This document shows, piece after piece, positions 28,596 through 52,772 of a stretch of 64,000 nucleotides of DNA. The notes under the pieces were generated by a model. That model was not told the origin of the DNA and did no database searches. It was given only the letters and a program-made list of their open reading frames with translations. The stretch is taken from positions 69,307 through 133,306 of the forward strand of contig NZ_JACSOH010000004.1 of assembly GCF_014349235.1 (NCBI RefSeq), given 5' to 3'. Source of the DNA: Cytophaga sp. FL35. Lineage in GTDB: Bacteria > Bacteroidota > Bacteroidia > Flavobacteriales > Flavobacteriaceae. Every line of letters begins with the position of its first letter. Within the stretch, counting starts at the first letter, position 1. The translations under genes were made by a program, and so were the position numbers.

Positions 28596-29096
28596 TTAAA
28601 GGAAGTTGAATGAAACCCCAATATTCACATTAAATTGATTGTGAAATTTATCGGATAGGGTTAGGTCTTCTGTTTGATACTTGGCAATTGGAAAACCTAG
28701 TTCCGTATAAACGCCTAGCCCCTCTGAAAAGAAATAGCGGGCGCCGGTATGAAACCCAAAATTCTTGAGCCCTAAATCCAAACCGGGGTACAAATCAAAG
28801 GCAGGGGTAACATCTATAATTGGCCCTAAATGTGCACTAAAACGCACTTTGGCATCAAAACGCTCTCTTGTATCATCATCTATTCCTTCTTCTATTCCCA
28901 ATAAATAGGAAGATACGGCACCCACGGATATATTCTCTCCCAAACCATAGTCATAGGAGGCAACAATTCCCGTTCCGTTATTCTGTAAGTTGGCACCTAC
29001 TTGGAACTTTTGATCTCCACGGCCTTCGTAGGCCTGTGCGGAGACAACCACAATTGTAAAAAATGCAACTATTGATGATATAACTAACTTCTTCAT
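28596..29096 (-). CDS. small outer-membrane beta-barrel protein
   Basis: Signal peptide. Alternating amphipathic beta-strand pattern. C-terminal aromatic (FNFL). Confidence 0.5.
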   Translation of the reverse strand: MKKLVISSIVAFFTIVVVSAQAYEGRGDQKFQVGANLQNNGTGIVASYDYGLGENISVGAVSSYLLGIEEGIDDDTRERFDAKVRFSAHLGPIIDVTPAFDLYPGLDLGLKNFGFHTGARYFFSEGLGVYTELGFPIAKYQTEDLTLSDKFHNQFNVNIGVSFNFL

Positions 29097-29116: not shown

Positions 29117-29977
29117 TTAGGCCGAAAGAACACGTTTGGTACGCTCAACAGCTCTGCTGTTTTTATAGTCGATCCATTTCTGGCCTTTTATTTTTCGCAT
29201 CGCGATATCAAAGCTACGCATTATGAAAATATTATAGACCCCTTTGGCAAAATTGAAGGGGTTTTTGGGCCATGCCCTTAAGCTCATACTAAACCCTGGA
29301 GTTTTATATTTCATATAATGCCAGTAACCCTCAGGCATGTAAAGAACCTCTCCATGTCCTAATTCCGTTCTATATCCGGAAGCCTTTTTTAATCCCGGCC
29401 ATTTTTCATAATCGGGATTGGAGAAATCTATACTTTCATGCGTAATCAAGGAGTGGGGAACCTTGTACAGGTACTTGGTTTCCTTAGGTGCAAACAAGAT
29501 ACATTCTTTGGTTCCCTCAAAGTGAAAATGAAAGATATTGGCCAAATCAATATCATAGTGCATAAAGGTGTAGGAGTCCCGTCCCCCAAAGAAAAGCATG
29601 GGCAATTTCCTTTTCAGTTTTAATCCAAAATCCGGGAAATCATAGTCCTGCTGAAGTGCTGGCACCTCCTTTAAAATATTCCATAGAAAAATCCTGTAAC
29701 GGGTAGGCTCTTTTTTGAGCAAATCTATATAATCTGCCATTTTCATCTGGGCATGCGGCTCGTTAAAACCATCTTCATGATTAACAGGTCTATCATCATA
29801 AAGCGGCACCGTTATATCTCCCGCCACTTCTTTCATGTAGCCCAAACTCCATTTTTTTATGGCTGGCCAGTGTTCTACAGAATTTTCTAGAACTACCGGT
29901 TTCTGAGGCTTGAAATAGTGCTTGATAAAATCTTCCTTAGTAATGGAACTTACCCGTGGAATAGCTTCTAACTTCAA
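29117..29977 (-). CDS. cupin-like (JmjC / Cupin_8) domain protein
   Basis: 286 aa. HxD...H-type cupin signature (FMHYDID...HF). Similar to the JmjC-like cupin-8 family. Confidence 0.65.
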   Translation of the reverse strand: MKLEAIPRVSSITKEDFIKHYFKPQKPVVLENSVEHWPAIKKWSLGYMKEVAGDITVPLYDDRPVNHEDGFNEPHAQMKMADYIDLLKKEPTRYRIFLWNILKEVPALQQDYDFPDFGLKLKRKLPMLFFGGRDSYTFMHYDIDLANIFHFHFEGTKECILFAPKETKYLYKVPHSLITHESIDFSNPDYEKWPGLKKASGYRTELGHGEVLYMPEGYWHYMKYKTPGFSMSLRAWPKNPFNFAKGVYNIFIMRSFDIAMRKIKGQKWIDYKNSRAVERTKRVLSA

Positions 29978-30058: not shown

Positions 30059-31195
30059 CTATACCAACTTGGTCTTGGCTTTTGCCTCCTCATTTCTAGC
30101 AATGGTATGACCCGGTCTGCTCCATTTGGGCTTTTCTCCCAAAGGCTGGTGTTGCGAGTCCTCCGCCTCTACTGTCTGTGGCTGACTTATCTTGGTAAAA
30201 GGTTTTTGAGGATTGAGGCCCAATAACTTGAACATTTCCATATCCTCGTTTACATCAGGATTAGGAGTGGTCAGCAATTTATCTCCCGCAAAAATGGAGT
30301 TGGCTCCGGCGAAGAAACACATGGCCTGGCCTTCCCTGCTCATTTGGGTACGGCCTGCGGATAACCTCACCTGGGTTTCAGGCATAACAATTCTGGTAGT
30401 AGCCACCATTCGAACCATTTCCCAAATGGAAACTGGCTCCATATCTTCCATTGGCGTACCTTCTACTGCCACCAAGGCATTGATAGGTACAGATTCCGGT
30501 TGCGGATTTAGAGTGGCCAATGCCACCAACATGCCGGCACGATCCTCTATTGCTTCTCCCATACCAATGATACCCCCGCTACAAACGGTAACATTGCTCT
30601 TACGAACGTTGTCTATAGTTTCCAAACGGTCTTCAAAAGCACGGGTAGAAATCACGTCTTTATAATAATCTTCGGAAGTATCTAAATTATGGTTGTAGGC
30701 ATATAGACCGGCTTCCGCCAATCTTTTTGCCTGATTTTCGGTCAACATACCCAAGGTACAGCAAACCTCCATATCCAATTTGTTAATGGTACGCACCATT
30801 TCCAAGACTTGATCAAACTCCGGTCCGTCTTTTACATTCCTCCAAGCAGCCCCCATACATACCCTTGAACTACCTGAAGCTTTAGCGCGTAAGGCTTGGG
30901 CCTTTACATGGGAAACCTGCATTAAATCATTCCCCTCTATATCCGTATGATAGCGCGCCGCTTGTGGGCAATAGCCACAATCCTCCGGACAACCACCTGT
31001 TTTAATAGACAATAAAGTAGAGACCTGAACCGTATTGGGGTCATGAAATTTTCTGTGAATCGTGGCAGCTTCATAAAGCAGCTCCATTAGCGGTTTGTTG
31101 TAGATTTCAAGAATTTCCTCTTTGGTCCAATCGTGCTTTTGTTCGCTCATAGTCTTATCTAAATCTGGGTCAAAAATAACCTTTAATAGTTTCAT
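30059..31195 (-). CDS. bioB: biotin synthase
   Basis: Radical-SAM [10 protein letters not shown] motif. Conserved BioB core. Extra roughly 40-aa Pro/Gln/Lys-rich C-terminal tail. Confidence 0.9.
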
Positions 31196-31285: not shown

Positions 31286-32716
31286 TTAGCTTTCAGGTTG
31301 ATTCTCCACAACCGTAGTATCTGTAGCATCAGCGTCATCTGCCTTAACTTCCTTTCCTTTTAGGTAATCTGGAAGTTGCATACCAGCCATATTGAACATT
31401 TCCTGTAGAGGTGGAACCGACTTATACATTCCCGAAATAAAATTGGCCGTAGAGCCTTTGTCATTTCCATTTTTTGCTCCGGAATCCCAAACGGTCACCT
31501 TATCGATTTTAATATTTTTGATAGCCTCAGCCTGGGTTTTCACCAATTCCGGAAGCTTATCGGCCACCAATAACAGCACCGCATCTTTTGGATTGTTTCC
31601 AGCGGCTTTTACAATTTCATCCAACCCTTGTGCTTGTTTGGTCAATATTTCAAATAGTCCCTTCGCCTCTGCTTGCGCCTTGAAAAGAATAGCATCCGCC
31701 TCACCTTTAGCTTTTCTCCTGATCATTTCAGCCTCCGCTTCGGCAGCAATCTCCACTTTTTTCTTATCTATTTCAGCAGGTACCACAATATCTGCCATTT
31801 GGCTACTTCTTACCCTCTCGGCCCGTGCTATTTCCGCATCTTTTTCAGCCGCATAAGATTCTTCCAAAGCTCTCGCCGCTTGTACTTTTTCCGCTGCTAT
31901 TGCCGTCCTCTCCGCTTCTGCCTCTCTTTGTCTTCGTAAGGAGTCTGAGTTTGCGACATTGATTTTTGCCACGTTTTCACCCTCAACCGCTTGGGCATTG
32001 GCCGCAGCAACTTGGGTTCTTTGATCCTGGACCGCGTTGGCCTCCCCAATGGAACCGTCCCTATTTTTCTCTGCAACGGACTTTCTGGCTGCGTTGATGG
32101 CATGTGCCGCCGCTTCCTTTCCAAGCGCTTCAATATATCCGGATTCATCTACAATATCCGTGATGTTTACGTTGATCAGTTTTAATCCTACTTTCTTTAA
32201 TTCAGACTCTACGCTTTGGGAAATATTGGTCAAAAATTTATCCCTATCCGAATTGATTTCCTCAATATCCATGGAAGCAACTACCAAACGTAATTGACCA
32301 AATATAATCTCCTTTGCCAATTCCTGAACCTCGGGCATTCCCTGTCCCAACAACCTTTCGGCAGCATTTTGCATCACTCCGGGTTCCGTAGAAATACCTA
32401 TAGTAAACCTTGAAGGCACATTTACCCTAATATTCTGTTTACTTAAAGCATTTACAAGGTTTACTTCTATGGATATAGGGGTTAGGTCCAAATATTCATA
32501 ATCTTGGATTACCGGCCATATAAAAGCCGCCCCACCATGAATACATTTGGCAGAACTGCCGGCTCCTACTTTACCGTAAATTACCAATATACGGTCCGAT
32601 GGACATCTTTTATACCTGCGTATAAACGATATTATAATGATGAAGAAAAATAGGATGGCAAACCCAATTGCCATCAAAGAGGCGCTTCCTCCTAATTGTA
32701 AGGGAATGTTTAGCAT
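31286..32716 (-). CDS. flotillin-family (SPFH/band-7, YqiK-like) protein
   Basis: N-terminal TM helix. SPFH domain. Long Ala/Glu-rich coiled-coil (EA repeats). 476 aa. Confidence 0.85.
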   Translation of the reverse strand: MLNIPLQLGGSASLMAIGFAILFFFIIIISFIRRYKRCPSDRILVIYGKVGAGSSAKCIHGGAAFIWPVIQDYEYLDLTPISIEVNLVNALSKQNIRVNVPSRFTIGISTEPGVMQNAAERLLGQGMPEVQELAKEIIFGQLRLVVASMDIEEINSDRDKFLTNISQSVESELKKVGLKLINVNITDIVDESGYIEALGKEAAAHAINAARKSVAEKNRDGSIGEANAVQDQRTQVAAANAQAVEGENVAKINVANSDSLRRQREAEAERTAIAAEKVQAARALEESYAAEKDAEIARAERVRSSQMADIVVPAEIDKKKVEIAAEAEAEMIRRKAKGEADAILFKAQAEAKGLFEILTKQAQGLDEIVKAAGNNPKDAVLLLVADKLPELVKTQAEAIKNIKIDKVTVWDSGAKNGNDKGSTANFISGMYKSVPPLQEMFNMAGMQLPDYLKGKEVKADDADATDTTVVENQPES

Positions 32717-32719
32717 TTA

Positions 32720-33298
32720 TTAAGTATTTATAAGTTGAACGATTAAAATTCCGTTGGCAGTAACCTCCTTCACCTTTACGACATTGCCCTGCACTAAATC
32801 CACACCATCATCTGTTAACGCATCTAGTTCCCTGAGGGAGCCCTGTACATTTATACTCACCTTGCCAATTCTACTTCTGTTGGCACCAATGGTAAGGTAA
32901 ACTTCACCTATTTGATTCAGGGCATTGGAAAGTTTAAGGGTTCCACTGCTTTGAAGTTTTCCTAAATAATAAAACAATGAAGCCATGGCCAACATCATAA
33001 TTAGGCCGCAGACAACTGATATAAGAACGGTAATACCTTTTGACATTCCTGCATCTAAACAAGCGATTCCAGACCAGCCAAAAATGGTAAAAAAGCCAAC
33101 AAGATTCTTAAAGGAAAGAAATTGGAATTCAATGCCCGTGTCACCCTCAATTTCTACATCTACATCTCCCTCAACACCCTCGGTTTCCCCACCAAATAAG
33201 GTAATTATCAAAAGAATCAAAAAGATTACGGAAGCTATTAGTGCTATTACCCAATAAATCTTCTCAAAAAGGAGCATTGTTTCAAACCCAGGTATCAT
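32720..33298 (-). CDS. NfeD/YqiJ-like membrane protein (flotillin partner)
   Basis: Three or four TM helices plus a C-terminal OB-fold-like beta domain. Located 4 nt upstream of the flotillin gene. Confidence 0.6.
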   Translation of the reverse strand: MIPGFETMLLFEKIYWVIALIASVIFLILLIITLFGGETEGVEGDVDVEIEGDTGIEFQFLSFKNLVGFFTIFGWSGIACLDAGMSKGITVLISVVCGLIMMLAMASLFYYLGKLQSSGTLKLSNALNQIGEVYLTIGANRSRIGKVSINVQGSLRELDALTDDGVDLVQGNVVKVKEVTANGILIVQLINT

Positions 33299-33369: not shown

Positions 33370-34539
33370 CTAGGTTCTAGACAACAAAAGGCTAACGGCA
33401 TTTCCCCCAAAGCCAACAGCATTTACCATTACCTTATTTATTGTAGCGGGCAGATTCTTTGCTTCTACAAAGGGCACTGATATTACCTGTTGTTTTTGCA
33501 ACATCAAAATAGCAAGTTCCATACTTAACGATCCCGATGTTCCGAAAGTATGTCCTACTTTCCATTTATTTGTAGTCAAAGTAGGAAGTTTGTTACAAAA
33601 TACCTTTTCAACAGCCTTTATTTCTGAGGAATCGCCTTTTATCGTTCCGGGGGCATGCATCACCACTACATCTACCTCATCAGGTGAAAAATCACCCAAG
33701 GCCATCTTCATGGAACGTTGGAAACAAAGGGCATCGGTAGAAACGGAAATATTGTGTTTTAAGGGTTCCGTTGCATAACCCACGCCAACAATTTGAGCCA
33801 AGGCATTCTCTTTTTCCCCGATTTCCATACAAGCAACCGAGGCTCCCTCCCCTAGCACCATGGTATTCTCCTTTTTTTCCATCTCCAAGGCCAAACAAGG
33901 AAAATCCACTTCTTTTTGCAAACCTCGCCTTGAATATACCTTTAGGGCTTTCATTTGGGAAATGGTGAAGGGCGTTAGCGGTGCCTCACTACCGCCTACC
34001 AAAAATTTATGGGTCATACCACTTTGTAGCCAAGCAACCCCATTTAAAACGCCATGGAGACCTGTTGAACAGGTGATGGAATGTGATATTTCAGGACCAT
34101 GGGTCTTTAGGTCGTGCGCCAACCACGAAGAGATATTTCCCAAAGTAGTGGTCGGTGAGGATAATGTGGAGCTTTTACCCTGCGCCAAAAATTCTTTGTG
34201 ATAGGTTTCAAAAAGTTCGGTAGCTCCGCGCGATGATCCGATATTTATTCCGAAGTCGTCGTTTATGGTCCATCCTGCATCGGCAACAGCTTTTCTAGCC
34301 GCGAAAAGTGCATATAGAACGGTTTTATCCAAACTTCTGTATTTTGGATCGGCATTTCTGATCTCCTCGATTTTCTGAATGTCTTCTTGTTGAATGGTCG
34401 AAACCCATTCATGTTGGTCTCCAAAACGTTTTTTTGTCAAATAATGCTGGCCGTTTAAATAAGCTTCCCAGGTAGATTCCAAATCACTACCTAATGGGGA
34501 AATAGAGGATATTGCCGTAATTGATATGGGTTGTTTCAC
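33370..34539 (-). CDS. FabF/FabB-like beta-ketoacyl-ACP synthase (KAS I/II family) encoded inside the biotin operon
   Basis: Cys-His-His triad context (HSITCSTGLHG, MHAPGT, VGHTFGTSGS). The likely start is the GTG at 34539 (VKQPISITAISSISPLG). The 73 upstream codons of the track ORF overlap bioA and are rejected. Confidence 0.75.
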   Translation of the reverse strand: MKQPISITAISSISPLGSDLESTWEAYLNGQHYLTKKRFGDQHEWVSTIQQEDIQKIEEIRNADPKYRSLDKTVLYALFAARKAVADAGWTINDDFGINIGSSRGATELFETYHKEFLAQGKSSTLSSPTTTLGNISSWLAHDLKTHGPEISHSITCSTGLHGVLNGVAWLQSGMTHKFLVGGSEAPLTPFTISQMKALKVYSRRGLQKEVDFPCLALEMEKKENTMVLGEGASVACMEIGEKENALAQIVGVGYATEPLKHNISVSTDALCFQRSMKMALGDFSPDEVDVVVMHAPGTIKGDSSEIKAVEKVFCNKLPTLTTNKWKVGHTFGTSGSLSMELAILMLQKQQVISVPFVEAKNLPATINKVMVNAVGFGGNAVSLLLSRT

Positions 34540-34553
34540 TACTAAAAGTCGTC

Positions 34554-35858
34554 TTAAACGATATCCAATACCTCGGTAATGGTATCGTAAATTTTTTGTA
34601 ATTGTGCTTCGGAAATGATGTAGGGAGCAGAAATATAAATGGTATTTCCTAGGGGCCTCAAAAATACGCCGTTGTCCATAAAATGCTTGAACAAACGGTC
34701 TCTGAGATTGCCGTAACGTTCCATTTTTACATTTAAGTCGAGCGCATAAATAATTCCGCATTGGCGGGTGGAGGCCACCTTTGGATGAATTTTCACCTTT
34801 TCATCAAACTCTTGATGACTACGGATTATTCGTTTAATATTTTTCTGAATTTCTTCGGACTGCAGCAATTGTAATCCGGCAAGGGCAGCCGTACAGGCCA
34901 ACGGATTAGCTGTGTAAGTATGGCCATGGAACAAACCTTTAGCAATATCATCGCTATAAAAGGCGTCGTACACCTCTTGAGTGCAGCTCGTTACTGCCAT
35001 AGGAAGCAGACCTGCCGTAAGGGCTTTACTCATACAAATGATATCAGGCGGGGTCTGCAAATATTCCGAAGCAAAATTTTTACCTGTTTTTCCAAAGCCG
35101 GTCATTACCTCATCGGCAATGGCCAAAACCCCATATTTTTTGATCAGCTCTAAAACCTGGTTCAGATTTTCTGGGGCATGCATTTTCATGGCTGCTGCAC
35201 CTTGCACTAGGGGTTCATAGACAAAGCCGGCAATATCATTTTTCTGCAAGCGACCTTCCAGCTGCTTTAATACCTCACCTACATTTTCTTTTGTGGGAAC
35301 AGGTATTCGCTCTACTTTAATAAAGTAATCTTCAAACGGTCCGTTGTAGACGGACAGGCCCGAAACGGACATAGCTCCAAAGGTATCGCCATGAAAACCT
35401 TCTTCAAACGCCAATAAAACAGGTCTCTTTTCCCCTTTATTAAAGTGGTATTGCAACGCCATTTTAATTCCAATTTCGGTAGCCGTTGAACCATTATCGG
35501 AAAAGAAGAGCTTTTGTTGATTGCTAGGTAATATGTTGATTAACGCTTCAGACAATTTTACAGCTGGTTCATGGGTAAATCCGCTAAAGACCACTTGGTC
35601 CAGCTGCTGCATTTGCGCTTGCACCTTTTCTAATATATAGTCATTACAATGCCCATAAACACTGGTGTACCAAGAGGAGATTCCATCTATATAGACCTTG
35701 CCGTTTTCGTCATATAAAAGAGCTCCTTTCGCCCTTTTAATACCCAACATTTTTGGGTGCAATTTGTGTTGGGTCAAGGGGTGCCAAATATGTTTTTGGT
35801 CCCTTTTGGAAATACTTTCGGATTCCAATACCGCCATGTCACGTTCATTTTCCATCAT
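34554..35858 (-). CDS. bioA: adenosylmethionine-8-amino-7-oxononanoate aminotransferase
   Basis: 434 aa class-III PLP aminotransferase with BioA-specific N-terminus (HIWHP...). Confidence 0.9.
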   Translation of the reverse strand: MMENERDMAVLESESISKRDQKHIWHPLTQHKLHPKMLGIKRAKGALLYDENGKVYIDGISSWYTSVYGHCNDYILEKVQAQMQQLDQVVFSGFTHEPAVKLSEALINILPSNQQKLFFSDNGSTATEIGIKMALQYHFNKGEKRPVLLAFEEGFHGDTFGAMSVSGLSVYNGPFEDYFIKVERIPVPTKENVGEVLKQLEGRLQKNDIAGFVYEPLVQGAAAMKMHAPENLNQVLELIKKYGVLAIADEVMTGFGKTGKNFASEYLQTPPDIICMSKALTAGLLPMAVTSCTQEVYDAFYSDDIAKGLFHGHTYTANPLACTAALAGLQLLQSEEIQKNIKRIIRSHQEFDEKVKIHPKVASTRQCGIIYALDLNVKMERYGNLRDRLFKHFMDNGVFLRPLGNTIYISAPYIISEAQLQKIYDTITEVLDIV

Positions 35859-35920
35859 GCAAAGATGGGGAAAATGGACTTCTTTTTACATAATTTGAAC
35901 GTTCAATAAACGGATACTTT

Positions 35921-36538
35921 CTATAAAGTCTCTAAAATAGGCTTGAATTTATCGGCATATTTTTTAATAACAGCCTTATCAAAAGATTCCTCCTCCTCAA
36001 TGCGGCCTATCATGGAAACTCCAGTTTTATGTAGAATAATATTTTCAGTTTGAGGATTCGCATTTCCACTAAAAAGTACGGAAACATCATACCCCTTTTG
36101 CATGAGCCAATTTATGGTCAATAGACTGTGGTTGATACTTCCTAAATAATGCCTAGAAACCACCACTACTTTATGGGTAGGCATGATGATATCCAATACG
36201 GTATCACTTTCATTAAAAGGAACAAGAATACCTCCACAGCCCTCAATCACCAAATGATTGTCCGTTTGCGGCACCTTGATATGTTCACGATCAATATGAA
36301 CACCTTCGTTCTCCGCCGCTGCATGTGGGCTCATAGGGTCCTTTAATTCGTAACTGCTTTTGTGGATTTTAGACTTTGGGTTGGACAATAAGGCCTTTAC
36401 CTTATCACTATCTGTATGGTCAAGTTCTCCCGCTTGAACGGGTTTCCAATAGTCTGCCTCCATAGCCTCTGCAATAATGGCCGAGGCAATGGTTTTTCCT
36501 ACTTCCGTAGAAATTCCTGTTACGAAAAATTGTGTCAT
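35921..36538 (-). CDS. bioD: dethiobiotin synthetase
   Basis: MTQFFVTGISTEVGKT P-loop start. About 205 aa. Confidence 0.85.
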   Translation of the reverse strand: MTQFFVTGISTEVGKTIASAIIAEAMEADYWKPVQAGELDHTDSDKVKALLSNPKSKIHKSSYELKDPMSPHAAAENEGVHIDREHIKVPQTDNHLVIEGCGGILVPFNESDTVLDIIMPTHKVVVVSRHYLGSINHSLLTINWLMQKGYDVSVLFSGNANPQTENIILHKTGVSMIGRIEEEESFDKAVIKKYADKFKPILETL

Positions 36539-36547
36539 AGGGTCATT

Positions 36548-36925
36548 TTAATTAGTGATCATGCCACAATTTAGGCATTTGTATTTTCTTTTCTCCAAAA
36601 ACGGAAAAAGTTTATGCAAAAGACCCTGTCTTTTATAGAAAACCTCGGAACGTTGGGCTCTACAATTGGGACATACCCGTACATTTCCCTCCTCATCCAA
36701 GGCATATGCCCTAATCTCATCATAAATGGATATAGCCTTGTCCTTATCTTCAGAATAAACCTGAAGTTTTACACCACCAATAGCGTTGCTAATAATGGGG
36801 TCTGAATTCAACGTATTCTCATCCCTTAGAAAGACCGAAATACCTACAGACTCCAATTTACTCTTAACGATTTGTACATCTGCCGGATATTCAAAAGAGG
36901 CCAACGTATAGAATTTACCTGCCAT
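36548..36925 (-). CDS. DUF2007-like small protein with a C-terminal CxxC...CxxC zinc ribbon, embedded in the bio operon
   Basis: 125 aa. DUF2007-like N-terminus. CPNC...CLNC. Confidence 0.5.
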   Translation of the reverse strand: MAGKFYTLASFEYPADVQIVKSKLESVGISVFLRDENTLNSDPIISNAIGGVKLQVYSEDKDKAISIYDEIRAYALDEEGNVRVCPNCRAQRSEVFYKRQGLLHKLFPFLEKRKYKCLNCGMITN

Positions 36926-36928
36926 TCC

Positions 36929-38083
36929 CTAATCAACTAATCCTTTTAATAAAAATAGCAATTCTTCCATTTGCTTCTTGGTATTAAAACTGTGGAGACA
37001 AATTCGTAGTCTTTCCGCTCCCAGAGGAACCGTAGGGGACAAAATGGCCCTAACATCAAAACCTGCATCCTTTAATTTTGCGGATGCATTTTTTGCCATT
37101 TCTATATTTCCCATATGCAGACAATGAATGGCAGATTGGCTAATTATAAACCTATGGTCCAAGCCTATTCTTTCAATTTCCGACTTAAAAAAAGCGATAT
37201 TCTCTTGAAGTTTTATCAAACTATTCGAATTTGCCATTTGCTGATGAACGGCCCGAACATTGGCCAAGGAATGTGGTGGCAAGCCCGTAGTATAAATGAA
37301 ACTGCGGGCAAAATTGATTAGGTATTCCCGTAATTTCGTATCTCCCAATACTGCCGCTCCATGGCAGCCCATAGCCTTCCCGAAAGTGACAATTCTCGCA
37401 AACACTTCGTTCTGCAATTTTAAGGCCTGCACCAATCCAGTACCGTTTACCCCAAAAACACCCACGGCATGGGCCTCGTCAACAATTAACCTGCACTTCT
37501 GATTTTCGCACAGCTTGCTAAGGACCTTTAAATCTGGCGTGTCACCATCCATAGAAAATACGGATTCTGTTACCACATAAATTTCAGCATCGGGCAATAG
37601 TTTGCTTTTTTCTTTCTTGATTCTCTCCCCTAAGTTGTTAAAATCGTTGTGGGCAAATTTCTGCGCTTTGGCATTGCCAAGGGAAATACCATCCCGGATA
37701 CTGGCATGAATCAATTCGTCGTAGAACACCAGATCACCACGTTGCGGAACGGAAGCAAAAAAACCTAAATTGGCATCGTAACCAGAATTAAAAACCAATG
37801 CCGAAGGGCATTGGTAAAAACCGGCCACTATTTTCTCTGTATTCGCATAGAGCTCATGGTTACCGGTAATTAAACGAGAACCAGTAGCCCCATTTTCAAC
37901 ACAATTTTGATAATCAAGAATGCTAGCGGTGATTTTAGATACTTCTTGATTTCTGGCAAAGCCCAAATAATCGTTCGAGGAAAAATCTACCAGATGACCA
38001 GTTGTCACCGGAAGCTCACGGAACGAATTTTCAGTTTTTCTTTGCTCCAGCTTTTTAAGCAACTTAGATGGAAAAGACATCAT
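36929..38083 (-). CDS. bioF: 8-amino-7-oxononanoate synthase
   Basis: Class-II PLP aminotransferase with BioF-like motifs (SNDYLGF, DEAHAVGVFG). Confidence 0.85.
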   Translation of the reverse strand: MMSFPSKLLKKLEQRKTENSFRELPVTTGHLVDFSSNDYLGFARNQEVSKITASILDYQNCVENGATGSRLITGNHELYANTEKIVAGFYQCPSALVFNSGYDANLGFFASVPQRGDLVFYDELIHASIRDGISLGNAKAQKFAHNDFNNLGERIKKEKSKLLPDAEIYVVTESVFSMDGDTPDLKVLSKLCENQKCRLIVDEAHAVGVFGVNGTGLVQALKLQNEVFARIVTFGKAMGCHGAAVLGDTKLREYLINFARSFIYTTGLPPHSLANVRAVHQQMANSNSLIKLQENIAFFKSEIERIGLDHRFIISQSAIHCLHMGNIEMAKNASAKLKDAGFDVRAILSPTVPLGAERLRICLHSFNTKKQMEELLFLLKGLVD

Positions 38084-38126
38084 TTTGCAAAATTAAGGGG
38101 TTTACGCGTTCCTAATCCCAACAAAC

Positions 38127-44540: not shown

Positions 44541-47000
44541 TTGAGCCGGTTCCTAGTCCCTTTTCTTATGTTATGTACCTATGGCTTTTCCCAAAACATC
44601 AACTTTGACCAGTTGGGCAAGGAGAAATGGCTGCGCTATAATGGCGGTATTGCGGCCAATGGTGTGTATTATGATGGAACTGCCAATAGACAGGCTTTTA
44701 CCTATTATCTTACCGGCAGCCTCAATTTTAATGTGGCGGGCGTGTACAGCATACCGCTATCCTTTACCTACTCCAACCAAGAATTTAATTTTCCCAATCC
44801 GTTTAAGTTCAACAGGTTTAGTCTGCACCCATCCTATAAATGGGCCACTGCACATATTGGGGACGTAAGCATGACCTTTTCGCCCTATACCCTTTCCGGA
44901 CACCAATTTACAGGGGGCGGTTTTGATCTGAACCCGGAAGGAAAGCTTCAGATAAGTGCCATGTACGGTAGGTTTCTAAGGGCCACGGAATACAACGAGG
45001 AAGAACCTCAAGCATTAACGGCCTACCAAAGAATGGGATATGGCGTAAAGACCGCCTATGATTTTGATTTTATGAAACTGGGAGTGATTCTTTTTAAGGC
45101 CAATGATGAAGAAAATTCCCTAAAAGAACCCTTTCCCGTAGAATTGGGACTTGCCCCTAAGGACAATGCCGTTCTTTCCTTTGAGTCCATTTTCAAACTT
45201 TTTGACAAAGCTAGCATTCGTATGGAATATGCCATTTCCGGGGTTACGGAAGATACCCGTTTAACGGAAAACAGGCCTACGGCCGGGTTGCTTTCCTTTC
45301 TTTTGGAGGAAAACATCAGCACCCAATATTACAATGCCCTAAACGCCTCCTTGGATTACCCAGCCGGAAACGGTAGTTTGGGCGTGGGCTATGAACGTAT
45401 AGACCCGGATTACAAAACGCTTGGGGCCTATTATTTTAATAACGACCTGGAAAACGTTACGGTAAATGCGAGTCAGTCCATTTTTGAGAACAAGTTGAAC
45501 CTTAACGTGAATGCAGGTTTGCAGCGCGACAATCTTAACAATGCTAAATCTTCGGACCAGCAACGCGTGGTAAGTGCCATCAATGCCAATTACACGGCTT
45601 CGGAACGTTTGGGCATCAACGCTAGCTACTCCAATTTTCAGTCATACACCAATATCAGGGACCAATTTGATTATATCAACCAAGTGGGGGCGTATGACAA
45701 TGTAGACACCCTTAATTACCGGCAGATTTCCCAGAATGCCAATTTGGGCCTTAACTATATCCTTAAAAAGACCGAAACCAAACAGCACAGCACCAACCTC
45801 AACCTGGTATATCAAAACAGTACCAATCAGCAAGAGGGGGAGACCATTGAAGGCGGTGAAAATTCTTTTTATAACGGGGTAGCTTCCTATACATTGGGGT
45901 TTCCACAACAGGCACTAAATGTGTCCTTGGCCGGAAACGTTTCTTACAATACCGTAGCTGAAGACAACAACCTTATTCTTGGGCCTACTTTGGCCATTGG
46001 AAAACAATTTTTTGACAAAAAACTGCGGAGTAATTTTTCGAGTTCCTACAACAGTTCCTTTGCCAATGGCGAACAACAGAACAACGTGCTCAACTTTAGG
46101 CTGGGAAGCAATTACGCCCTGTACAAAAAACACAATCTGAACCTCAACTTTTTAATGTTGTTCAGAAACTCGGAGCTCAATACCGGTCGCGACCTAACCA
46201 TCACCTTTGGCTATAGCTATGCCTTTGATAATTTTAAGTTGGACATTGACCCGGGCAGCAGAACTCCCAACGAGCGTGACCCTAGAAATAAAGAAAACAC
46301 TTTAAGCTTCCGCTATAGAAACGTAACCTACAGCGGCACCATTCCCAATTTAAACGAGCAGCTTACCAGTGTATATACAAGTGCTCCGTTTAGGAATATT
46401 CCACTATTTAAAAAAGACGAACTTAAAATTCTATTGACGACGGTTAAAGAGCAAAAAAGAGAGGACAGGTACAAAGAAAGTGCACTTACCTTTTTGGCAG
46501 AGCTGTACGCCTTTGGCGATTTTGAAAAAGTGTACGAAGAAGCTTTATATAACGTTATTTCAAATATTCAAGACGATATGAAAAAAATTGATATGGCCTT
46601 GGAGAACCTGTTTGTAGCCAAGAAACTGGAAGTAGACGAGCACCCGTTGCATAATAAAACAGAGGAGAATTATTCCCAAAGAGATAAGGCTTTGGCTCCT
46701 CGATATCAGGCCTTAGTTGCAGAACAACAAACCCGATTGGAAAAATTGGTGGGCCATCGATGGATGGAAACCCAATTCGCAGAATTTACCAGTATGGAGG
46801 ACATTGAAAAGGGAACCGGATTTTTAAAAGAATTTAAAAAAGACTATGCATTAAAGTCTTTTGAAATGTTTGAGAAAACAGAAAATGTAAACCAACTGGA
46901 AACCTATTTGGAAAACGAAATCATTGATTTCTATTACAAAAAATCATTGAACTTGGTGAATCCGGAGTTTTTTGAGCTGAAGTATATTAATAGGAACTAG
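44541..47000 (+). CDS. large secreted protein of unknown function (beta-rich N-terminal half, helical C-terminal quarter)
   Basis: Signal peptide MSRFLVPFLMLCTYGFSQ. 819 aa. Confidence 0.5.
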   Translation: MSRFLVPFLMLCTYGFSQNINFDQLGKEKWLRYNGGIAANGVYYDGTANRQAFTYYLTGSLNFNVAGVYSIPLSFTYSNQEFNFPNPFKFNRFSLHPSYKWATAHIGDVSMTFSPYTLSGHQFTGGGFDLNPEGKLQISAMYGRFLRATEYNEEEPQALTAYQRMGYGVKTAYDFDFMKLGVILFKANDEENSLKEPFPVELGLAPKDNAVLSFESIFKLFDKASIRMEYAISGVTEDTRLTENRPTAGLLSFLLEENISTQYYNALNASLDYPAGNGSLGVGYERIDPDYKTLGAYYFNNDLENVTVNASQSIFENKLNLNVNAGLQRDNLNNAKSSDQQRVVSAINANYTASERLGINASYSNFQSYTNIRDQFDYINQVGAYDNVDTLNYRQISQNANLGLNYILKKTETKQHSTNLNLVYQNSTNQQEGETIEGGENSFYNGVASYTLGFPQQALNVSLAGNVSYNTVAEDNNLILGPTLAIGKQFFDKKLRSNFSSSYNSSFANGEQQNNVLNFRLGSNYALYKKHNLNLNFLMLFRNSELNTGRDLTITFGYSYAFDNFKLDIDPGSRTPNERDPRNKENTLSFRYRNVTYSGTIPNLNEQLTSVYTSAPFRNIPLFKKDELKILLTTVKEQKREDRYKESALTFLAELYAFGDFEKVYEEALYNVISNIQDDMKKIDMALENLFVAKKLEVDEHPLHNKTEENYSQRDKALAPRYQALVAEQQTRLEKLVGHRWMETQFAEFTSMEDIEKGTGFLKEFKKDYALKSFEMFEKTENVNQLETYLENEIIDFYYKKSLNLVNPEFFELKYINRN

Positions 47001-47123
47001 GGAGTTAGGAGTTAGGAAAATAAAAAAATGCATTTGGTAGAATTAAAATTTGAACTTTTAAAATTAGTCAGAAAAATGCGGCCCATATGGAATACTGCAT
47101 ACTGTCCACTGAAAAAGAATTGA

Positions 47124-47486
47124 ATGTATAACCAACTAACAGCATATAAAACGGCGTTTTCATTAGCTATGGAGGTCTTTGAAATGACAAAAGAATTTCC
47201 AAAAGAGGAGCGCTATTCCCTAACCGACCAGATTAGGAGAAGTTCCCGTTCCGTTTGTGCCAATATTGCTGAAGGTTACCGAAAAAGGAGGTATGTAAAA
47301 CATTTCGTTGCCAAACTTACAGACGCCGATATGGAAAATACAGAAACCCAAGTTTGGTTAAAGTTTTCATTGGAATGCCAGTACATAAAAGAAGAGACCA
47401 AAGTAGAACTGTACAACAAGACCGTAGAAGTAGGGAAATTGCTTGGTTATATGATCAATAATCCTAAAAAATTCTGCAGCAAATGA
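47124..47486 (+). CDS. four-helix-bundle protein (23S-rRNA-intervening-sequence protein family)
   Basis: 120 aa. AYKTAFSLAMEVFEMTKEFPKEERYSLTDQIRRSSRSVCANIAEGY signature of the TIGR02436-like family. Its stop overlaps the next ATG (ATGA). Confidence 0.8.
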   Translation: MYNQLTAYKTAFSLAMEVFEMTKEFPKEERYSLTDQIRRSSRSVCANIAEGYRKRRYVKHFVAKLTDADMENTETQVWLKFSLECQYIKEETKVELYNKTVEVGKLLGYMINNPKKFCSK

Positions 47487-50400
47487 TATTTAAAACCATA
47501 AAACATATCATCCAAACACTGCAAAACCGCATCCAGCAAACGGCAAAACTGAGCGCTGCTCACTGCCTACTGCAATCTGCAATCTGCCTACTATTTTTAA
47601 CTTTTAACTACACAATCGCCACCGCCCAATCTTTTCCCGTACAGGTAATTCCGCAAGTGACGCCACCGCCACCTATATATTTTTCGGAATACGCCAACGA
47701 GAGTACGGTTAACAGTCCGTTGCGGGTACAGTTGATCTTAAACGATTTTGAGATTGTCAATCGGGAAGTCCGCCTAAGAGTTTCCTTTGAGGGTAGTGGC
47801 ATCAGTTTTCAAAGTAAGGACCTGGTTACCGGCGCTTCGCCCCTATTTTTGGAAGGAGGCGTTCCCCTGGTACTTACCAACGTAGAGCTGGCACCCTATT
47901 TTAGATATGAAAACCTCAACGGTATTTCGGGTAATGTATATGGCAATGCCATCCCTGAAGGTGCCTATAACTTCTGTTTTGAGGTATTCGATGTGCTTAC
48001 TGGTAGTCGTCTGTCCCAAAAATCGTGTGCCATTAGTGTAGTCTTTCAGAACGAACCGCCTTTTTTGGTATCCCCCAGAAATAAGACCAATGTAGAAGAA
48101 ATCAATCCGCAGAACATTGTATTTCAGTGGACGCCCAGACACGTAAATGTTAGCAATGTAGAATACGAGCTTAGCATTGTGGAGATTTGGGACACGCAAG
48201 TGGACCCCCAACAGGCCTTTTTAAGCTCGCCTCCCGTTTTTCAGACCGTTACCAATGCCACTACCTATGTATACGGACCGGCAGATCCGCTCTTCCTATC
48301 CGGAAAAAATTATGCTTGGCGGGTACAGGCAAAGGCGAAACAAGGGTTGGAAGAGGTGGGCCTTTTTGAAAACCAAGGCTATAGCGAAATCTATTCCTTC
48401 AGTTATGCCGGCAGTTGTGATTTGCCCTTGGGCATTAACCATGAGGTTAAGGGGAGCACCAACGCCAATATATTTTGGGACGATTTCTCTACCGACGTAC
48501 CGGAATACACCCTGCGTTACCGACAAAAAAACGTGGAGGGGGCGGAGTGGTTTCCGGCCAAAACCACCAGTAATATTCTCACCCTTTGGAACTTAAAACC
48601 GGGCACCACTTACGAGTACCAACTCAGTAAAAAATGTAACACGGTGTACAGTGACTGGAGCTTGTTAAAGGAGTTTACTACCACCTTGGAGTTTGAGGAA
48701 GAAAGCGTTCTGGATTGTGGCATAGCCCCCAATATTAGCGTCACCAATAAAGACCCCCTACCAAATATGGCATCGGGTAGCATTTTTAAAGCGGGCGACT
48801 TTCCGGTAACGGTGATGGAAGTAAGCGGTAGCAATGGCCGTTTTACGGGTAAGGGCTTTGTAAAAATGCCCTACCTAGAGAATCTTAAGGTGTATGTAGA
48901 GTTTACCAATATTCTGGTAAATACAGATCAAGAAATGGCGGAAGGCTCTGTAAGAACCGCCTATGACCCAACTTGGCGAAATATACTGAATACGGCTGAT
49001 TTGGCCCAGCGGGCCGGGGAGTTTGTGGATGCCGTAGGAGATTTGGGAGAAAGCGTTGACGATATTCTTGAAGATGTATTTAACACAGACGACGAAGACG
49101 AAGAGAATGCCCCACCGGTAGATCCAGAAATGGAAGAAGGTGAAACAGTGCCCCCTTCTACCGAAACTTCTGGCGAGAATGAGACAGACACGAATACCTC
49201 GGACGCATCAAATGATGCTGACAACGAAGAGTCATCATCTGGTTCCACAAGCAACGATAGTAATGGCTCTACGCCGAACACAGGTGGTTCAACAGGTGAT
49301 AATTCTTCTGACAACCCTAATCCTGACACCAATGAAGAAGATGAGCAAGAGGTAGTAATAGTTTACAATGGTTCTGAATATAGAAATGGTGATATCTTGG
49401 AAATTAAATATTCCAACAACTCAAGTAAACATTTATTCACCTTAGCAAATCACGCCAAAGATTGTAAGATAGATTGGAGCACACATGCTGACATGAATGA
49501 ATTAGCAGCAACGTCCTTTGCGGGAAGTGGGCATCAAATAGAATTAAATTTAAATAATAAAGAGTATTTAACACTACAAGCAGAATATTGGACTCCTTCT
49601 GACAGTTATCCAGAAGGAGAATCACAGAAAATAAGAATTGTAATAAAAATTTTACGTGAGCAATTTGACTTAAAAGAATTATATGCAAAACATAGTAAAA
49701 GAAGAATTGCAAAATCTGGACAAACCTTATATTTACTTGACGACACTGGTCTTTCTGAAAGTTCCAAATTTAAAAAAGTTGAATTTGGGGTTAAAATTGA
49801 CCCTAAATTAAAAGAATCTGAAATACACGATTTAAATCTTGGTTGGTATTATGGTTCAAACAAGTCTGTCTCAAAAGATGAGGCTAGTTTAAATATCTCT
49901 AGAAATATTAGGCTTAAAGAGGGGTTTGATAATACTACTGTAAAAGCTGGATACCCTAAAGCTAAAGAAAAAGATATCAATGTTAAGTGGGAAGACCAAT
50001 ATGATGTCTCTACAGATTACTTAACCAAATTCTCAAAAATACTAACTTTTTTAGAACAGTTTAATAGAATTTCTTCAAAATTTAAATCCGTTTTACCCTG
50101 CGAGGCTAGTATTTTAAATGATTTTAACGCCCTCGTAGGTGCGAAAAAAATAGCTTTTAAGTTAAGAACCTATAATGAAGAAGACGATGAAAGTAGAGAA
50201 TTATATGACGTGTTACAAACTAACTTGAAACTACAATCCTCAAGTTTAGCCGATTTGCAATGTGGTAAGGATTTAGGTTATTTAGGCGTTTCATTAGGAA
50301 AGTTTTACGGTGGGATGAGTTTAGGCGCGAATATAAATTTTAGATATTCTTTAAAAACTAAAAATGAAACGTTAGAGCGGAAAACTGTTCCCGAAATATC

Positions 50401-50719
50401 TGGTGGATTCGTATTAACAACTGATTTTGGTTTTAAAACTGCCGAAATCATTGATGAATACTTCTTCTTAAAAGCTGCTATTGAAATTAAGGCAGGTACT
50501 AAAACAGTTTACCCCTTTAAAGGGAAAAATTATCAAATAGGCAGTTATCTCTATTTAGGTAAAACGAATTTTGTAGTCGATGGTTATATTGATACTTGGC
50601 TAACAGGAAGGGAAGATTTCAATTTCAAGTACTTAATTTATGATTCTCAATGGGAAAGCGATCAAAGACTAATTATCGACTTGAAAGCACAAGACATTTA
50701 TTTAGAAACAGGTAATTAA
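47483..50719 (+). CDS. 1078-aa secreted protein with fibronectin-type-III-like domains, an acidic low-complexity linker and a compositionally foreign (AT-rich) C-terminal domain
   Basis: Signal peptide. FN3-like motifs (YAWRVQAKA, YEYQLSKKC...DWS). D/E/S/T/N-rich linker at about 49040-49340. GC drops to about 28% from about 49340 to the stop. Confidence 0.6.
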   Translation: MIFKTIKHIIQTLQNRIQQTAKLSAAHCLLQSAICLLFLTFNYTIATAQSFPVQVIPQVTPPPPIYFSEYANESTVNSPLRVQLILNDFEIVNREVRLRVSFEGSGISFQSKDLVTGASPLFLEGGVPLVLTNVELAPYFRYENLNGISGNVYGNAIPEGAYNFCFEVFDVLTGSRLSQKSCAISVVFQNEPPFLVSPRNKTNVEEINPQNIVFQWTPRHVNVSNVEYELSIVEIWDTQVDPQQAFLSSPPVFQTVTNATTYVYGPADPLFLSGKNYAWRVQAKAKQGLEEVGLFENQGYSEIYSFSYAGSCDLPLGINHEVKGSTNANIFWDDFSTDVPEYTLRYRQKNVEGAEWFPAKTTSNILTLWNLKPGTTYEYQLSKKCNTVYSDWSLLKEFTTTLEFEEESVLDCGIAPNISVTNKDPLPNMASGSIFKAGDFPVTVMEVSGSNGRFTGKGFVKMPYLENLKVYVEFTNILVNTDQEMAEGSVRTAYDPTWRNILNTADLAQRAGEFVDAVGDLGESVDDILEDVFNTDDEDEENAPPVDPEMEEGETVPPSTETSGENETDTNTSDASNDADNEESSSGSTSNDSNGSTPNTGGSTGDNSSDNPNPDTNEEDEQEVVIVYNGSEYRNGDILEIKYSNNSSKHLFTLANHAKDCKIDWSTHADMNELAATSFAGSGHQIELNLNNKEYLTLQAEYWTPSDSYPEGESQKIRIVIKILREQFDLKELYAKHSKRRIAKSGQTLYLLDDTGLSESSKFKKVEFGVKIDPKLKESEIHDLNLGWYYGSNKSVSKDEASLNISRNIRLKEGFDNTTVKAGYPKAKEKDINVKWEDQYDVSTDYLTKFSKILTFLEQFNRISSKFKSVLPCEASILNDFNALVGAKKIAFKLRTYNEEDDESRELYDVLQTNLKLQSSSLADLQCGKDLGYLGVSLGKFYGGMSLGANINFRYSLKTKNETLERKTVPEISGGFVLTTDFGFKTAEIIDEYFFLKAAIEIKAGTKTVYPFKGKNYQIGSYLYLGKTNFVVDGYIDTWLTGREDFNFKYLIYDSQWESDQRLIIDLKAQDIYLETGN

Positions 50720-51165
50720 TGCTATATAAAATTTTCAACAGATTATTTCAATTTTTCTTATTTACCATTCTATTCGTTCTATTCATTAGCAGTATAAGAG
50801 TAGTACTTAACAATATAAAATATTTTGGAATTATTAAATCTGGGAAAATAATAGATATAGATTATACCAGAGGTTCCAAATCGACTGATGAGAGAGGCAC
50901 CTATATGAATACGATATTAACGGAGGGTAATAAAGATACGGTTTATGGAGGAAGTCAGAATCAATATAAAAGGGGAGACAAAATAAAATTTCGCTTTCGA
51001 GGAATAGGAGGAAATATAATATTTGAAGTAAACGGATTGAAAGTACGCTCCAAATATGATACTTGGGATTATCTTTCTCCTATTATTCTACTTTTTTCAT
51101 CATTTATGATTTACAAAATATTAACTCATTGGTTTATACCATTTTTAAATAAAATCAGAAAATGA
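50719..51165 (+). CDS. 148-aa two-TM membrane protein, AT-rich, translationally coupled (TAATG) to the preceding gene. Candidate immunity or accessory protein.
   Basis: N- and C-terminal hydrophobic helices. About 25% GC. Overlapping stop/start on both sides. Confidence 0.45.
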   Translation: MLYKIFNRLFQFFLFTILFVLFISSIRVVLNNIKYFGIIKSGKIIDIDYTRGSKSTDERGTYMNTILTEGNKDTVYGGSQNQYKRGDKIKFRFRGIGGNIIFEVNGLKVRSKYDTWDYLSPIILLFSSFMIYKILTHWFIPFLNKIRK

Positions 51166-52439
51166 GTAAAATAATTTTTTTATCAATCTTTTTCATTTTT
51201 TACGGACTGTATTCACAATCACAGAATATTGATGGCATATGTTCAGAAGCTGATTTATTCGGGATTCCTGTGGATAATAACCAAATTACATATCATAAAT
51301 ATGCGCCAGTTCTACAACTAAAAAAGAGGTACGCTTCATTTGAAGAAGTTAAAAATCGAACACCCGAAGAATTACTAATTTCTCAAATGTCAGTACAAAA
51401 TAATAAATGGCTAGCTTATAATTTTGAAAATGATATCAAATGGAAAGAAGAGCAATTTAAAAGAATCACATCTCAAGACCCCGAGAAAAATTACATCGAA
51501 TTAATCCGAAAAATAACATACCAAATAAACGGTACAAATTATTCCATTTTAAGGTTGAAAATTTATGATGACAGAAAAAGTAAACCCGCCACTTTAAGCC
51601 TAATGGCAAGTTGTAATAAAGGGAAATGGGCCTTCGTTAAAAATAAGACACGATCTCCGTTAGAATTTTTAATGTCCAACTTAAACCTCCAATATCTTGA
51701 TAAGACCTTAGAAAATGAAGATTCGGATAATTCAAGGTTCAATGAATTAATAAAATCTTCATGGAGGTCGAACCGATTAAGTCCTACGAATATCTATAGA
51801 ATAATCGGTGATAACATGCTGGTTAACGACGGTACTCTTGATAAGGTTTATGAAAGAGCCAACCCTTCCTCTCAACAAACAGAATTTCAAGAATACCATG
51901 AAAATTTTGTATTCACTAAAAACACAATAAACGTAAACTATCTTATCCCCCTAACTGATCAAGAATTCTGTTACTATTTTCCAAATCAACTATCACAATT
52001 TGATTCGAAAAGTATAGCTCAGCTTATTGAATACTTAGAAAACGAAAACATAAACCAAGAGGGTAAAAAACCAACTATTTTCCCTATTCATAAATTTAGA
52101 TACCGACAGGACAATAAAGTGTTTGTAATTGTCAAATATTCCATTAGGCTTGAGAACGAAGAAGCCAAAATAAAAACAGAGGTATTTGATTATAATAGAG
52201 GTAGATACAAAGTACAGAATGAGATAAATCCAGTAAATAGTAATTTAAAATATTTGCTGAATGTTGCTAAATCAGATTTTATAATACAAATATCAAATGG
52301 TGAAAACAATGCAGATTACCCCGAAGTAAATGCTTTAAAACCCGAAACTAAGGACGCCAATGAAATTCTTAACCTGAAGGAACTCATACAAGTAATTACC
52401 AATAATAGTTCAAGTTTGGAAAAGTATTTAAACAATTAA
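51162..52439 (+). CDS. 425-aa secreted protein of unknown function, AT-rich, coupled (ATGA) to the preceding ORF
   Basis: Signal peptide MSKIIFLSIFFIFYGLYSQ. No recognisable domain. Same low-GC block. Confidence 0.45.
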   Translation: MSKIIFLSIFFIFYGLYSQSQNIDGICSEADLFGIPVDNNQITYHKYAPVLQLKKRYASFEEVKNRTPEELLISQMSVQNNKWLAYNFENDIKWKEEQFKRITSQDPEKNYIELIRKITYQINGTNYSILRLKIYDDRKSKPATLSLMASCNKGKWAFVKNKTRSPLEFLMSNLNLQYLDKTLENEDSDNSRFNELIKSSWRSNRLSPTNIYRIIGDNMLVNDGTLDKVYERANPSSQQTEFQEYHENFVFTKNTINVNYLIPLTDQEFCYYFPNQLSQFDSKSIAQLIEYLENENINQEGKKPTIFPIHKFRYRQDNKVFVIVKYSIRLENEEAKIKTEVFDYNRGRYKVQNEINPVNSNLKYLLNVAKSDFIIQISNGENNADYPEVNALKPETKDANEILNLKELIQVITNNSSSLEKYLNN

Positions 52440-52765: not shown

Positions 52766-52772
52766 AAAAGTA

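Follow-up and report, generated by a model that had tools for sequence, protein, structure and literature searches.

A KAS I/II-type ketosynthase encoded with the biotin genes is a candidate maker of the pimelate precursor in marine Bacteroidota

The pimelate half of the biotin pathway is its variable and only partly solved half. Four routes to pimelate have been described, namely BioC–BioH with its esterase variants, BioI/BioW, BioZ and BioE–BioL (PMC12704756, PMC12915131). BioZ of alpha-proteobacteria is a beta-ketoacyl synthase (KAS) of type III that carries a Cys-His-Asn triad and joins glutaryl-coenzyme A (CoA) with malonyl-acyl carrier protein (malonyl-ACP) (PMC7645780). Here we analyse a 64-kb stretch of DNA from Cytophaga sp. 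FL35 (Flavobacteriaceae; contig NZ_JACSOH010000004.1, positions 69,307 to 133,306), referred to below as the window, in which an array of biotin (bio) genes includes a ketosynthase of the KAS I/II type. This enzyme, called the KAS hereafter, is probably the maker of biotin's pimelate precursor in many marine Bacteroidota. None of the four routes employs a KAS I/II enzyme, and a literature search, which did not extend to subscription-only papers, found no publication that deals with this KAS family or with any biotin enzyme of the KAS I/II type.

All genes of the bio array lie on the minus strand of the window. From the upstream end they are preceded and ordered as follows.

38088-38095, minus strand: TAATTTTG box, read from the sequence, 4 nucleotides ahead of the bioF ATG; fits the Bacteroidetes -7 box
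36929-38083, minus strand: bioF (8-amino-7-oxononanoate synthase), first gene of the array; best match TIGR00858 (1e-99, 333.8 bits, below the equivalog cut-off of 426), Pfam Aminotran_1_2
36548-36925, minus strand: DUF2007-like protein, 125 amino acids, with a C-terminal four-Cys zinc ribbon (Cys codons at 36673, 36664, 36577 and 36568); Pfam DUF2007, sub-threshold
35921-36538, minus strand: bioD (dethiobiotin synthase); TIGR00347, 110.4 bits against a cut-off of 83.3; Pfam AAA_26
34554-35858, minus strand: bioA (adenosylmethionine-8-amino-7-oxononanoate transaminase); TIGR00508, 540 bits against a cut-off of 405
33370-34539, minus strand: the bio-operon ketosynthase (KAS), 389 amino acids, GTG start; Pfam ketoacyl-synt N and C domains, KAS I/II fold
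32720-33298, minus strand: NfeD-like membrane protein, forming with the next gene an insert (31286-33298) between the KAS and bioB
31286-32716, minus strand: flotillin/Band 7 protein (Pfam Band_7), the other half of this insert
30059-31195, minus strand: bioB (biotin synthase), downstream end of the array; TIGR00433, 403 bits against a cut-off of 225

Positions of the open reading frames (ORFs) and family matches agree with the order given in the original prediction, which ran from bioF through the DUF2007/zinc-ribbon gene, bioD and bioA to a KAS I/II-type gene. Its estimate of 3 to 14 nucleotides for the gaps is right for bioF/DUF2007 (3), DUF2007/bioD (9) and bioA/KAS (14) and wrong for bioD/bioA, where the gap is 62 nucleotides. 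It had also overlooked bioB, which belongs to the same minus-strand array and is parted from the KAS by the two-gene insert. The mechanical ORF of the KAS (33370-34761) runs into bioA. Translation in fact starts at the GTG at 34539, a position supported both by the N-termini of homologues and by a gene call made independently on the source contig. Pfam scans of nearly all window ORFs of at least 120 amino acids brought up no gene for a methyltransferase or esterase and none that was FabH-like, BioW/BioI-like or ferritin-like. The absence of a bioC- or bioH-like methyltransferase or esterase that had been noted for the cluster is thus confirmed, and it extends to the window as far as these scans reach.

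An ordinary fatty-acid or secondary-lipid ketosynthase, be it a housekeeping FabF or an enzyme of the flexirubin or polyketide type, might lie beside bio genes by accident. The FabF fold and the full Cys-His-His triad of the KAS would be compatible with this, as would the automatic annotation of some members as '3-oxoacyl-ACP synthase II' and the existence of one member that stands alone. The similarity scores, however, already disfavour it. Against the FabF equivalog model TIGR03150 the window KAS reaches 144.6 bits, the cut-off being 493.75, and it also falls far under the cut-offs of the other KAS equivalog models. Among solved structures its best match is Listeria FabF at 111 bits, and E. 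coli FabF gives 88.6 bits. As a calibration, E. coli FabF was compared with the FabFs of Firmicutes, Thermus, cyanobacteria and alpha-proteobacteria (440–485 bits), mitochondrial KAS (373–401), KasA (306), the actinorhodin ketosynthase (278) and FabB (250). At 88.6 bits, where FabB reaches 250 and the actinorhodin enzyme 278, the window KAS is more remote from FabF than either FabB or a polyketide ketosynthase. Judged by its sequence, it is not a housekeeping FabF.

The fold itself is that of FabF. A confident AlphaFold (AF2) model of the KAS (predicted local distance difference test score, pLDDT, 93; predicted template modelling score, pTM, 0.94) matches FabF with template modelling (TM) scores of 0.87–0.89 at 22–26 per cent identity. 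An exhaustive search of 1.84 billion cluster representatives yielded 375 representatives of the KAS family at E<1e-30, of which the best 150 score at least 238 bits, with identity down to 36 per cent. Whether bio-linked KAS form a group of their own apart from FabF and FabB was a test put forward with the original prediction, and they do, with in-family scores of at least 238 bits, compared with 88–111 bits against solved FabFs and 440–485 bits between FabFs. Named members are spread over many genera of Flavobacteriaceae (Zobellia, Maribacter, Flagellimonas, Tenacibaculum, Cellulophaga and Flavobacterium, with F. psychrophilum among the last); outside this family, members occur in Schleiferiaceae, Pontibacter (Cytophagales) and Candidatus Kryptoniota. 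The name given to them by NCBI is the generic 'beta-ketoacyl synthase N-terminal-like domain-containing protein', which indicates that no specific curated model exists for the family.

Residues of the active site and the acyl pocket were compared in an alignment of 139 full-length KAS representatives with E. coli FabF and FabB. The codons concerned are these.

34228-34230, minus strand: Arg104 codon, aligned with E. coli FabF Ile108, the back gate of the acyl pocket
33550-34071, minus strand: span of the catalytic codons Cys157 (34071-34069), His295 (33657-33655), Lys325 (33567-33565) and His330 (33552-33550), FabF equivalents
33411-33409, minus strand: codon of the gatekeeper Phe377, equivalent to FabF F400

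Cys157, His295, His330, Lys325 and Phe377, which correspond to FabF C163, H303, H340, K335 and F400, are invariant in 139 of 139 representatives. Together with the fold and the GFGG loop, they are what the KAS has in common with FabF (KAS II, TIGR03150) and FabB (KAS I), and the malonyl-ACP extender is presumably shared as well. With its catalytic set invariant, the KAS should therefore be a working decarboxylative condensing enzyme, a prediction made from these residues.

The back of the pocket is another matter. The hydrophobic gate of FabF (Ile108–Phe202), through which long acyl chains can pass, is not kept in the KAS. An Arg occupies the Ile108 position in all 139 full-length representatives and in all 233 further homologues checked, in a register that is identical in three independent alignments, and Phe202 is replaced by Met196 in the window KAS. 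Polar residues specific to the family, conserved at 93–100 per cent, stand at further FabF positions, with Thr at L111, I138 and A162, Ser at V134 and Gln at G201, and about 12 residues are deleted near the C-terminus relative to FabF. In FabF the I108–F202 gate sits at about C7–C8 of the bound chain, and the I108F mutation restricts elongation to C6 to C8 and confers cerulenin resistance; a glutaryl methyl ester has about the length of a C7 chain (PMC9006962). The charged, polar and shortened pocket of the KAS would be expected to fit a short acyl chain with a terminal carboxylate and not ordinary long chains. The Arg at the Ile108 position offers a tangible basis in structure for a condensing step that is specific to dicarboxylates.

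The arrangement of the KAS with the bio genes is not due to chance. In a scan that took one genome for each species, at least 485 species gave a match, and the best 80 loci were analysed together with two Euzebyella loci, making 82 loci of Flavobacteriaceae. In 78 of the 82 the KAS is directly downstream of bioA. The other genes are present in 77 (bioD), 76 (bioF, upstream of the KAS) and 68 (bioB) of the loci; in 57, bioB is on the KAS strand and downstream of it. The gap from bioA to the KAS is at most 100 nucleotides in 40 of 77 loci. The closest named relative, the marine Euzebyella saccharophila (Flavobacteriaceae), has a KAS that is 85 per cent identical to that of the window. In the related loci the median identity to the window protein is 63 per cent for the KAS, 65 per cent for bioA and 62 per cent for bioD, and the KAS is consequently as conserved as these two biotin genes.

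Nine distant family members were also examined for gene context, and eight of the nine are linked to bio genes. Five of them belong to operons of five genes whose junctions are small or overlap. One has the order bioF-D-A-KAS-bioB and four have the order bioB-F-D-A-KAS; one of these four belongs to Candidatus Kryptoniota. In the five-gene operons the KAS is the sole gene besides the four universal late-step genes. The remaining linked contexts are bioD-KAS-bioB, a bio operon with three extra unknown genes (bioB-x-F-D-A-x-x-KAS) and a KAS near bioF. Distant members in tight operons are 36–41 per cent identical to the window KAS, and two of the distant operons (L085 and L087) have the KAS directly adjoining bioB. 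Operon linkage is thus conserved in Flavobacteriaceae, in other Bacteroidota and in Candidatus Kryptoniota, and the association between the KAS and the bio genes holds under different gene orders and in more than one phylum.

In L087, a gene for a YciA-like 4HBT acyl-CoA thioesterase (6734-7243, plus strand) stands directly before bioD-KAS-bioB. It is a single case, which could bear on the CoA as against the ACP form of the intermediates. Apart from this thioesterase next to bioD on one contig, the unknown genes of the distant operons had no NCBIfam match.

The genomic context further separates the KAS from FabF, as it lies in bio operons instead of beside acpP and fab genes. No acpP, fabH, other fab gene or second KAS was found in the window or the fetched loci, and E. 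coli FabF, AcpP and FabH, searched by tblastn in every one of these loci, hit nothing but the bio-KAS itself. The KAS therefore fails as a FabF on score, on orthologue-level similarity and on the back gate, and its genomic context in the loci examined points the same way. An accidental neighbour would not be expected to keep a bio linkage that outlasts rearrangement across phyla, and the Arg at the back gate should block chains beyond about C6–C8, against a role in ordinary fatty-acid or secondary-lipid synthesis. We regard such a role as very improbable.

Neighbouring ORFs of the related loci were clustered, and no conserved BioC, BioH, BioG, BioZ, BioW, BioI or BioE-like gene was detected. 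Neighbours within 10 kb in more than 90 loci included no S-adenosylmethionine (SAM) methyltransferase or pimeloyl-ACP methyl ester esterase. Genes inserted at the bioF/bioD, bioD/bioA and bioA/KAS junctions were checked as a hidden BioC or BioH and proved to be unrelated and sporadic: TraB/GumN, an extracytoplasmic function (ECF) sigma factor, a PMT_2 glycosyltransferase, SET, LysR, PD-(D/E)XK, an OmpA-like protein and an NAD-binding protein.

It is improbable, in view of these neighbourhoods, that the operon KAS is a helper which elongates the methyl-ester intermediates of a BioC–esterase route encoded elsewhere. The frequent location of bioH outside bio operons counts in favour of such a helper. 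The methyl-ester intermediates of E. coli are elongated by general KAS enzymes (PMC9006962, PMC12915131), so that a private copy for this purpose is conceivable. However, no methyltransferase occurs in more than 90 clusters of differing gene order, whereas BioC-using relatives of the Fibrobacterota–Chlorobiota–Bacteroidota (FCB) group, the Balneolaceae, keep BioC in the operon (PMC9909488). The invariant Arg and the polar swaps would also suit a free carboxylate better than a neutral methyl ester.

The reading we favour, with somewhat more confidence than doubt, is that the KAS is a dedicated ketosynthase of the biotin pathway, which would condense an omega-carboxy primer, probably glutaryl, with malonyl-ACP to give 3-oxopimeloyl-ACP. 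In this proposal Cys157 would first be acylated by a short chain with a free carboxylate end, for which the C5 unit glutaryl, supplied as its ACP or CoA thioester, is the most likely choice. The carboxylate would be gripped by the invariant Arg104, in a region where Ser, Thr or Gln take the place of several hydrophobic residues of FabF. The His295/His330/Lys325/Phe377 machinery would then decarboxylate malonyl-ACP and join it to the primer, and the resulting 3-oxopimeloyl-ACP would be reduced to pimeloyl-ACP by the housekeeping enzymes FabG, FabZ and FabI. Finally, pimeloyl-ACP would be converted to biotin by BioF, BioA, BioD and BioB, encoded alongside. The KAS would thereby stand in for BioC/BioH and be a functional analogue of the KAS III enzyme BioZ, which bypasses bioC/bioH in E. 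coli.

What this analysis observed is how the genes are ordered and how far that order is conserved, together with a family apart from FabF, the fold, intact catalytic residues and an invariant Arg; substrate, product and hand-over to the Fab enzymes we infer by analogy with BioZ (PMC7645780, PMC8024396). A dedicated condensing step for pimelate was the central idea of the original prediction, and the separate family, the conserved bioFDA(B) linkage, the lack of bioC, bioH or bioG-type genes in these clusters and the invariant Arg lend it support. The likeness to BioZ that it suggested, with a different structure, is supported as well, as the KAS has KAS I/II domains and Cys-His-His, and an invariant Arg at the back gate fits the analogy.

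In both systems one extra condensing-enzyme gene belongs to a bioBFDA operon (bioBFDAZ in the case of BioZ), and neither bioC nor bioH is present in the clusters. The reaction scheme proposed for the KAS is shared too: an omega-carboxy primer and malonyl-ACP would give 3-oxopimeloyl-ACP, and Fab reductases would finish the chain. Polar residues are proposed to hold the terminal carboxylate in each. BioZ uses Ser84 and Ser287 to hold the omega-carboxyl of glutaryl (PMC12625853), whereas the putative ligand in the KAS is the invariant back-gate Arg. BioZ has the FabH fold with Cys-His-Asn; the KAS, in contrast, has ketoacyl-synt N and C domains, Cys-His-His, the Lys and the gatekeeper Phe, and its best fold match is FabF. 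Primer carriers probably differ too, ACP being likely for the KAS and CoA serving BioZ, and so do the ranges, Bacteroidota and Kryptoniota as against Rhizobiales. By fold class and catalytic triad, as read from the sequence, the KAS is not a member of the BioZ family. By analogy, it would represent a ketosynthase-based entry into biotin synthesis that is built on a different class of ketosynthase than BioZ.

The remaining described routes differ more. BioC–BioH (with BioG, BioK, BioJ or BioV) reaches the same end, pimeloyl-ACP, with the help of fatty-acid synthesis enzymes, but the KAS clusters are without a SAM methyltransferase or esterase, and the chemistry proposed for the KAS needs no masking of the carboxylate. 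BioE–BioL of Weeksellaceae occurs in the same phylum and likewise lies by bioF/bioD as the sole dedicated early-step gene, often accompanied by a regulator of the MocR/GntR type. BioE is a ferritin-like diiron oxygenase that cleaves long-chain acyl thioesters oxidatively, whereas the KAS is proposed to condense. In family scans, run without a BioE sequence query, neither a ferritin-like gene nor a MocR/GntR regulator turned up, be it in the window or as a conserved neighbour. A conserved neighbour of 177 amino acids (c29) was considered as BioE-like and rejected, being a small two-helix membrane protein in which the ExxH motif is missing from 10 of 12 copies.

Several points weigh against a dedicated glutaryl-condensing role. 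One distant family member (P0380) stands alone, not beside bio genes. No enzyme making glutaryl-ACP is linked to the operon, and KAS I/II enzymes normally take acyl-ACP primers. Where Arg104 lies with respect to Cys157 is read from the FabF alignment and not from a measured distance, and that FabF L111, V134, I138 and A162 line the pocket is an assumption. A BioC with an esterase, or a BioE, may be encoded elsewhere in the genome, which would make the KAS only auxiliary; BioE has been reported in some Flavobacteriaceae (PMC12915131).

The missing glutaryl supply leads to a different scheme, an unlikely one in our judgement, in which the KAS works iteratively and without a mask. It would load malonyl and then glutaryl with the carboxylate free, in two rounds with Fab reductases between them, so that pimeloyl-ACP would come wholly from malonyl-ACP, with no methylation and no lysine-derived glutaryl-CoA. 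The five-gene operons agree with this insofar as they hold no gene supplying glutaryl-CoA or glutaryl-ACP, and a flexible Arg in a polar pocket could hold carboxylates at two chain lengths. On the other hand, FabG, FabZ and FabI would have to reduce 3-oxoglutaryl-ACP. In the logic of BioC–BioH the methyl ester is needed because fatty-acid enzymes cope poorly with charged short intermediates, and this speaks against the iterative scheme. An Arg at the C7–C8 gate also seems too deep for a C3 chain. KAS I/II enzymes are by nature iterative and ACP-dependent (PMC9006962), which is in its favour. Only with considerable reserve would we speculate that an Arg-gated KAS is a fifth, mask-free pimelate route and the main biotin source of marine Flavobacteriia and related FCB phyla. 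For such a route a single additional enzyme would be enough beside the general Fab reductases, and BioC, an esterase and lysine catabolism could all be dispensed with.

The second unusual gene of the array encodes the DUF2007/zinc-ribbon protein. It lies between bioF and bioD and carries CPNC (residues 85–88) and CLNC (117–120), just as had been described. The match of the window protein to DUF2007 (21.7 bits) is below the Pfam gathering threshold of 25.7, and many homologues with 70–93 per cent identity carry a precomputed PF09413 assignment. There are 648 homologues in this identity range, with 54 invariant columns. The gene is present in 48 of the 82 loci, always between bioF and bioD, and within 30 nucleotides of bioF in 44 of 47; it is found in none of the distant KAS operons. 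The DUF2007 protein is therefore not a general partner of the KAS but a lineage-specific accessory, and it is probably not needed for the chemistry. Its AF2 model is mediocre (pLDDT 72.5). A fold search with this model gave no significant match, the weak ones being to PII proteins and to 2hfv, the founding DUF2007 structure (probability 0.99, E 0.09). On this modelled fold, the protein could be a small ligand-binding or regulatory partner.

The junction between the KAS and bioB seems to be a hot spot for insertion inside the bio array. The NfeD-like/flotillin pair occupies it in 25 of the 82 loci, an AbiH-family gene is found there instead in Euzebyella, and in many loci bioB follows the KAS directly with no insert. 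The NfeD-like/flotillin insert is not part of the biotin pathway.

Directly after bioB, the window encodes a Cupin_8/JmjC-like protein of 286 amino acids (29117-29977, minus strand), in which H140, D142 and H220 could form an iron site of the HxD...H type. The gene follows bioB in 48 of the 82 related loci and is not found in the distant minimal operons. It stays by bioB even where bioB is on the other strand and away from the KAS (L060, L083). A link of this protein to biotin or iron–sulfur chemistry is possible. The next gene encodes a DUF6646 outer-membrane beta-barrel-like protein (28596-29096, minus strand; 18 of 82 loci), beyond which RecX and RNase G follow on the other strand, a conserved chromosomal neighbourhood.

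Upstream of bioF, the TAATTTTG box matches TAnnTTTG, which we take to be the Bacteroidetes -7 promoter consensus. Across 74 related loci, no 8-mer occurs more often upstream of bioF than TACATTTG, which resembles this box. Scans of the array for terminators and sigma-70 promoters did no better than on shuffled sequences, and Rfam detected no riboswitch or other RNA in the window. In two loci from Algibacter and Tamlana (L046 and L035), repeated ATTATCGAA-N-AACAATAA motifs are found about 60–110 nucleotides upstream of bioF. These could be operator sites of some regulator. They are missing from the window, which has only the -7 box.

Other parts of the window hold further features. At 2025-3694 (minus strand), in a stretch of low guanine-plus-cytosine (GC) content (34 per cent), three tandem paralogues encode secreted proteins of about 100 amino acids with near-identical signal peptides (MKK[LI]FITTVFALGSLTAFAQEE...). 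Genes for a PnuC-type transporter of nicotinamide riboside or nicotinamide mononucleotide (NMN), an AAA_28 (NadR-kinase-like) protein and a DUF4301 protein of 517 amino acids stand in a row at 3917-6614 (minus strand), an arrangement that resembles a unit for vitamin B3 salvage plus one uncharacterised partner. An Sfp-type 4'-phosphopantetheinyl transferase (6896-7528, minus strand) adjoins an S-adenosylhomocysteine hydrolase (7613-8929, plus strand), with no obvious link to the bio genes. From 44541 to 64000 (plus strand) there are very large genes without a Pfam match, for proteins of 819, 1078 (one weak fn3), 148, 425, 1603 and 697 amino acids, and the run closes with an ORF that leaves the window end. 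Among them are genes for a 23S-rRNA-IVP/bAvd-like four-helix protein (47124-47486) and a DUF559 endonuclease-like protein (52773-53147), and GC content falls to 31 per cent around 50–52 kb of the window. This region may be a mobile or surface-structure island.

Flavobacteriia count as leading producers of biotin in the ocean; 69 per cent of them carry bioFADB (PMC9561691). The flavobacterial bio clusters analysed here show no known early gene, and the KAS is the single conserved candidate for this role. Arg104, at the position of the FabF Ile108 gate, is a clear and mutable candidate for the specificity residue, which makes the question directly testable. If the proposal is correct, two classes of ketosynthase would have been recruited convergently for one step, and the widespread 'FabF' and 'beta-ketoacyl synthase domain protein' labels of the KAS family would be corrected. 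Biotin prototrophy would be better predicted from genomes and metagenomes. The family would also provide a natural case of a KAS I/II pocket re-engineered for dicarboxylates, of interest for odd-chain diacids.

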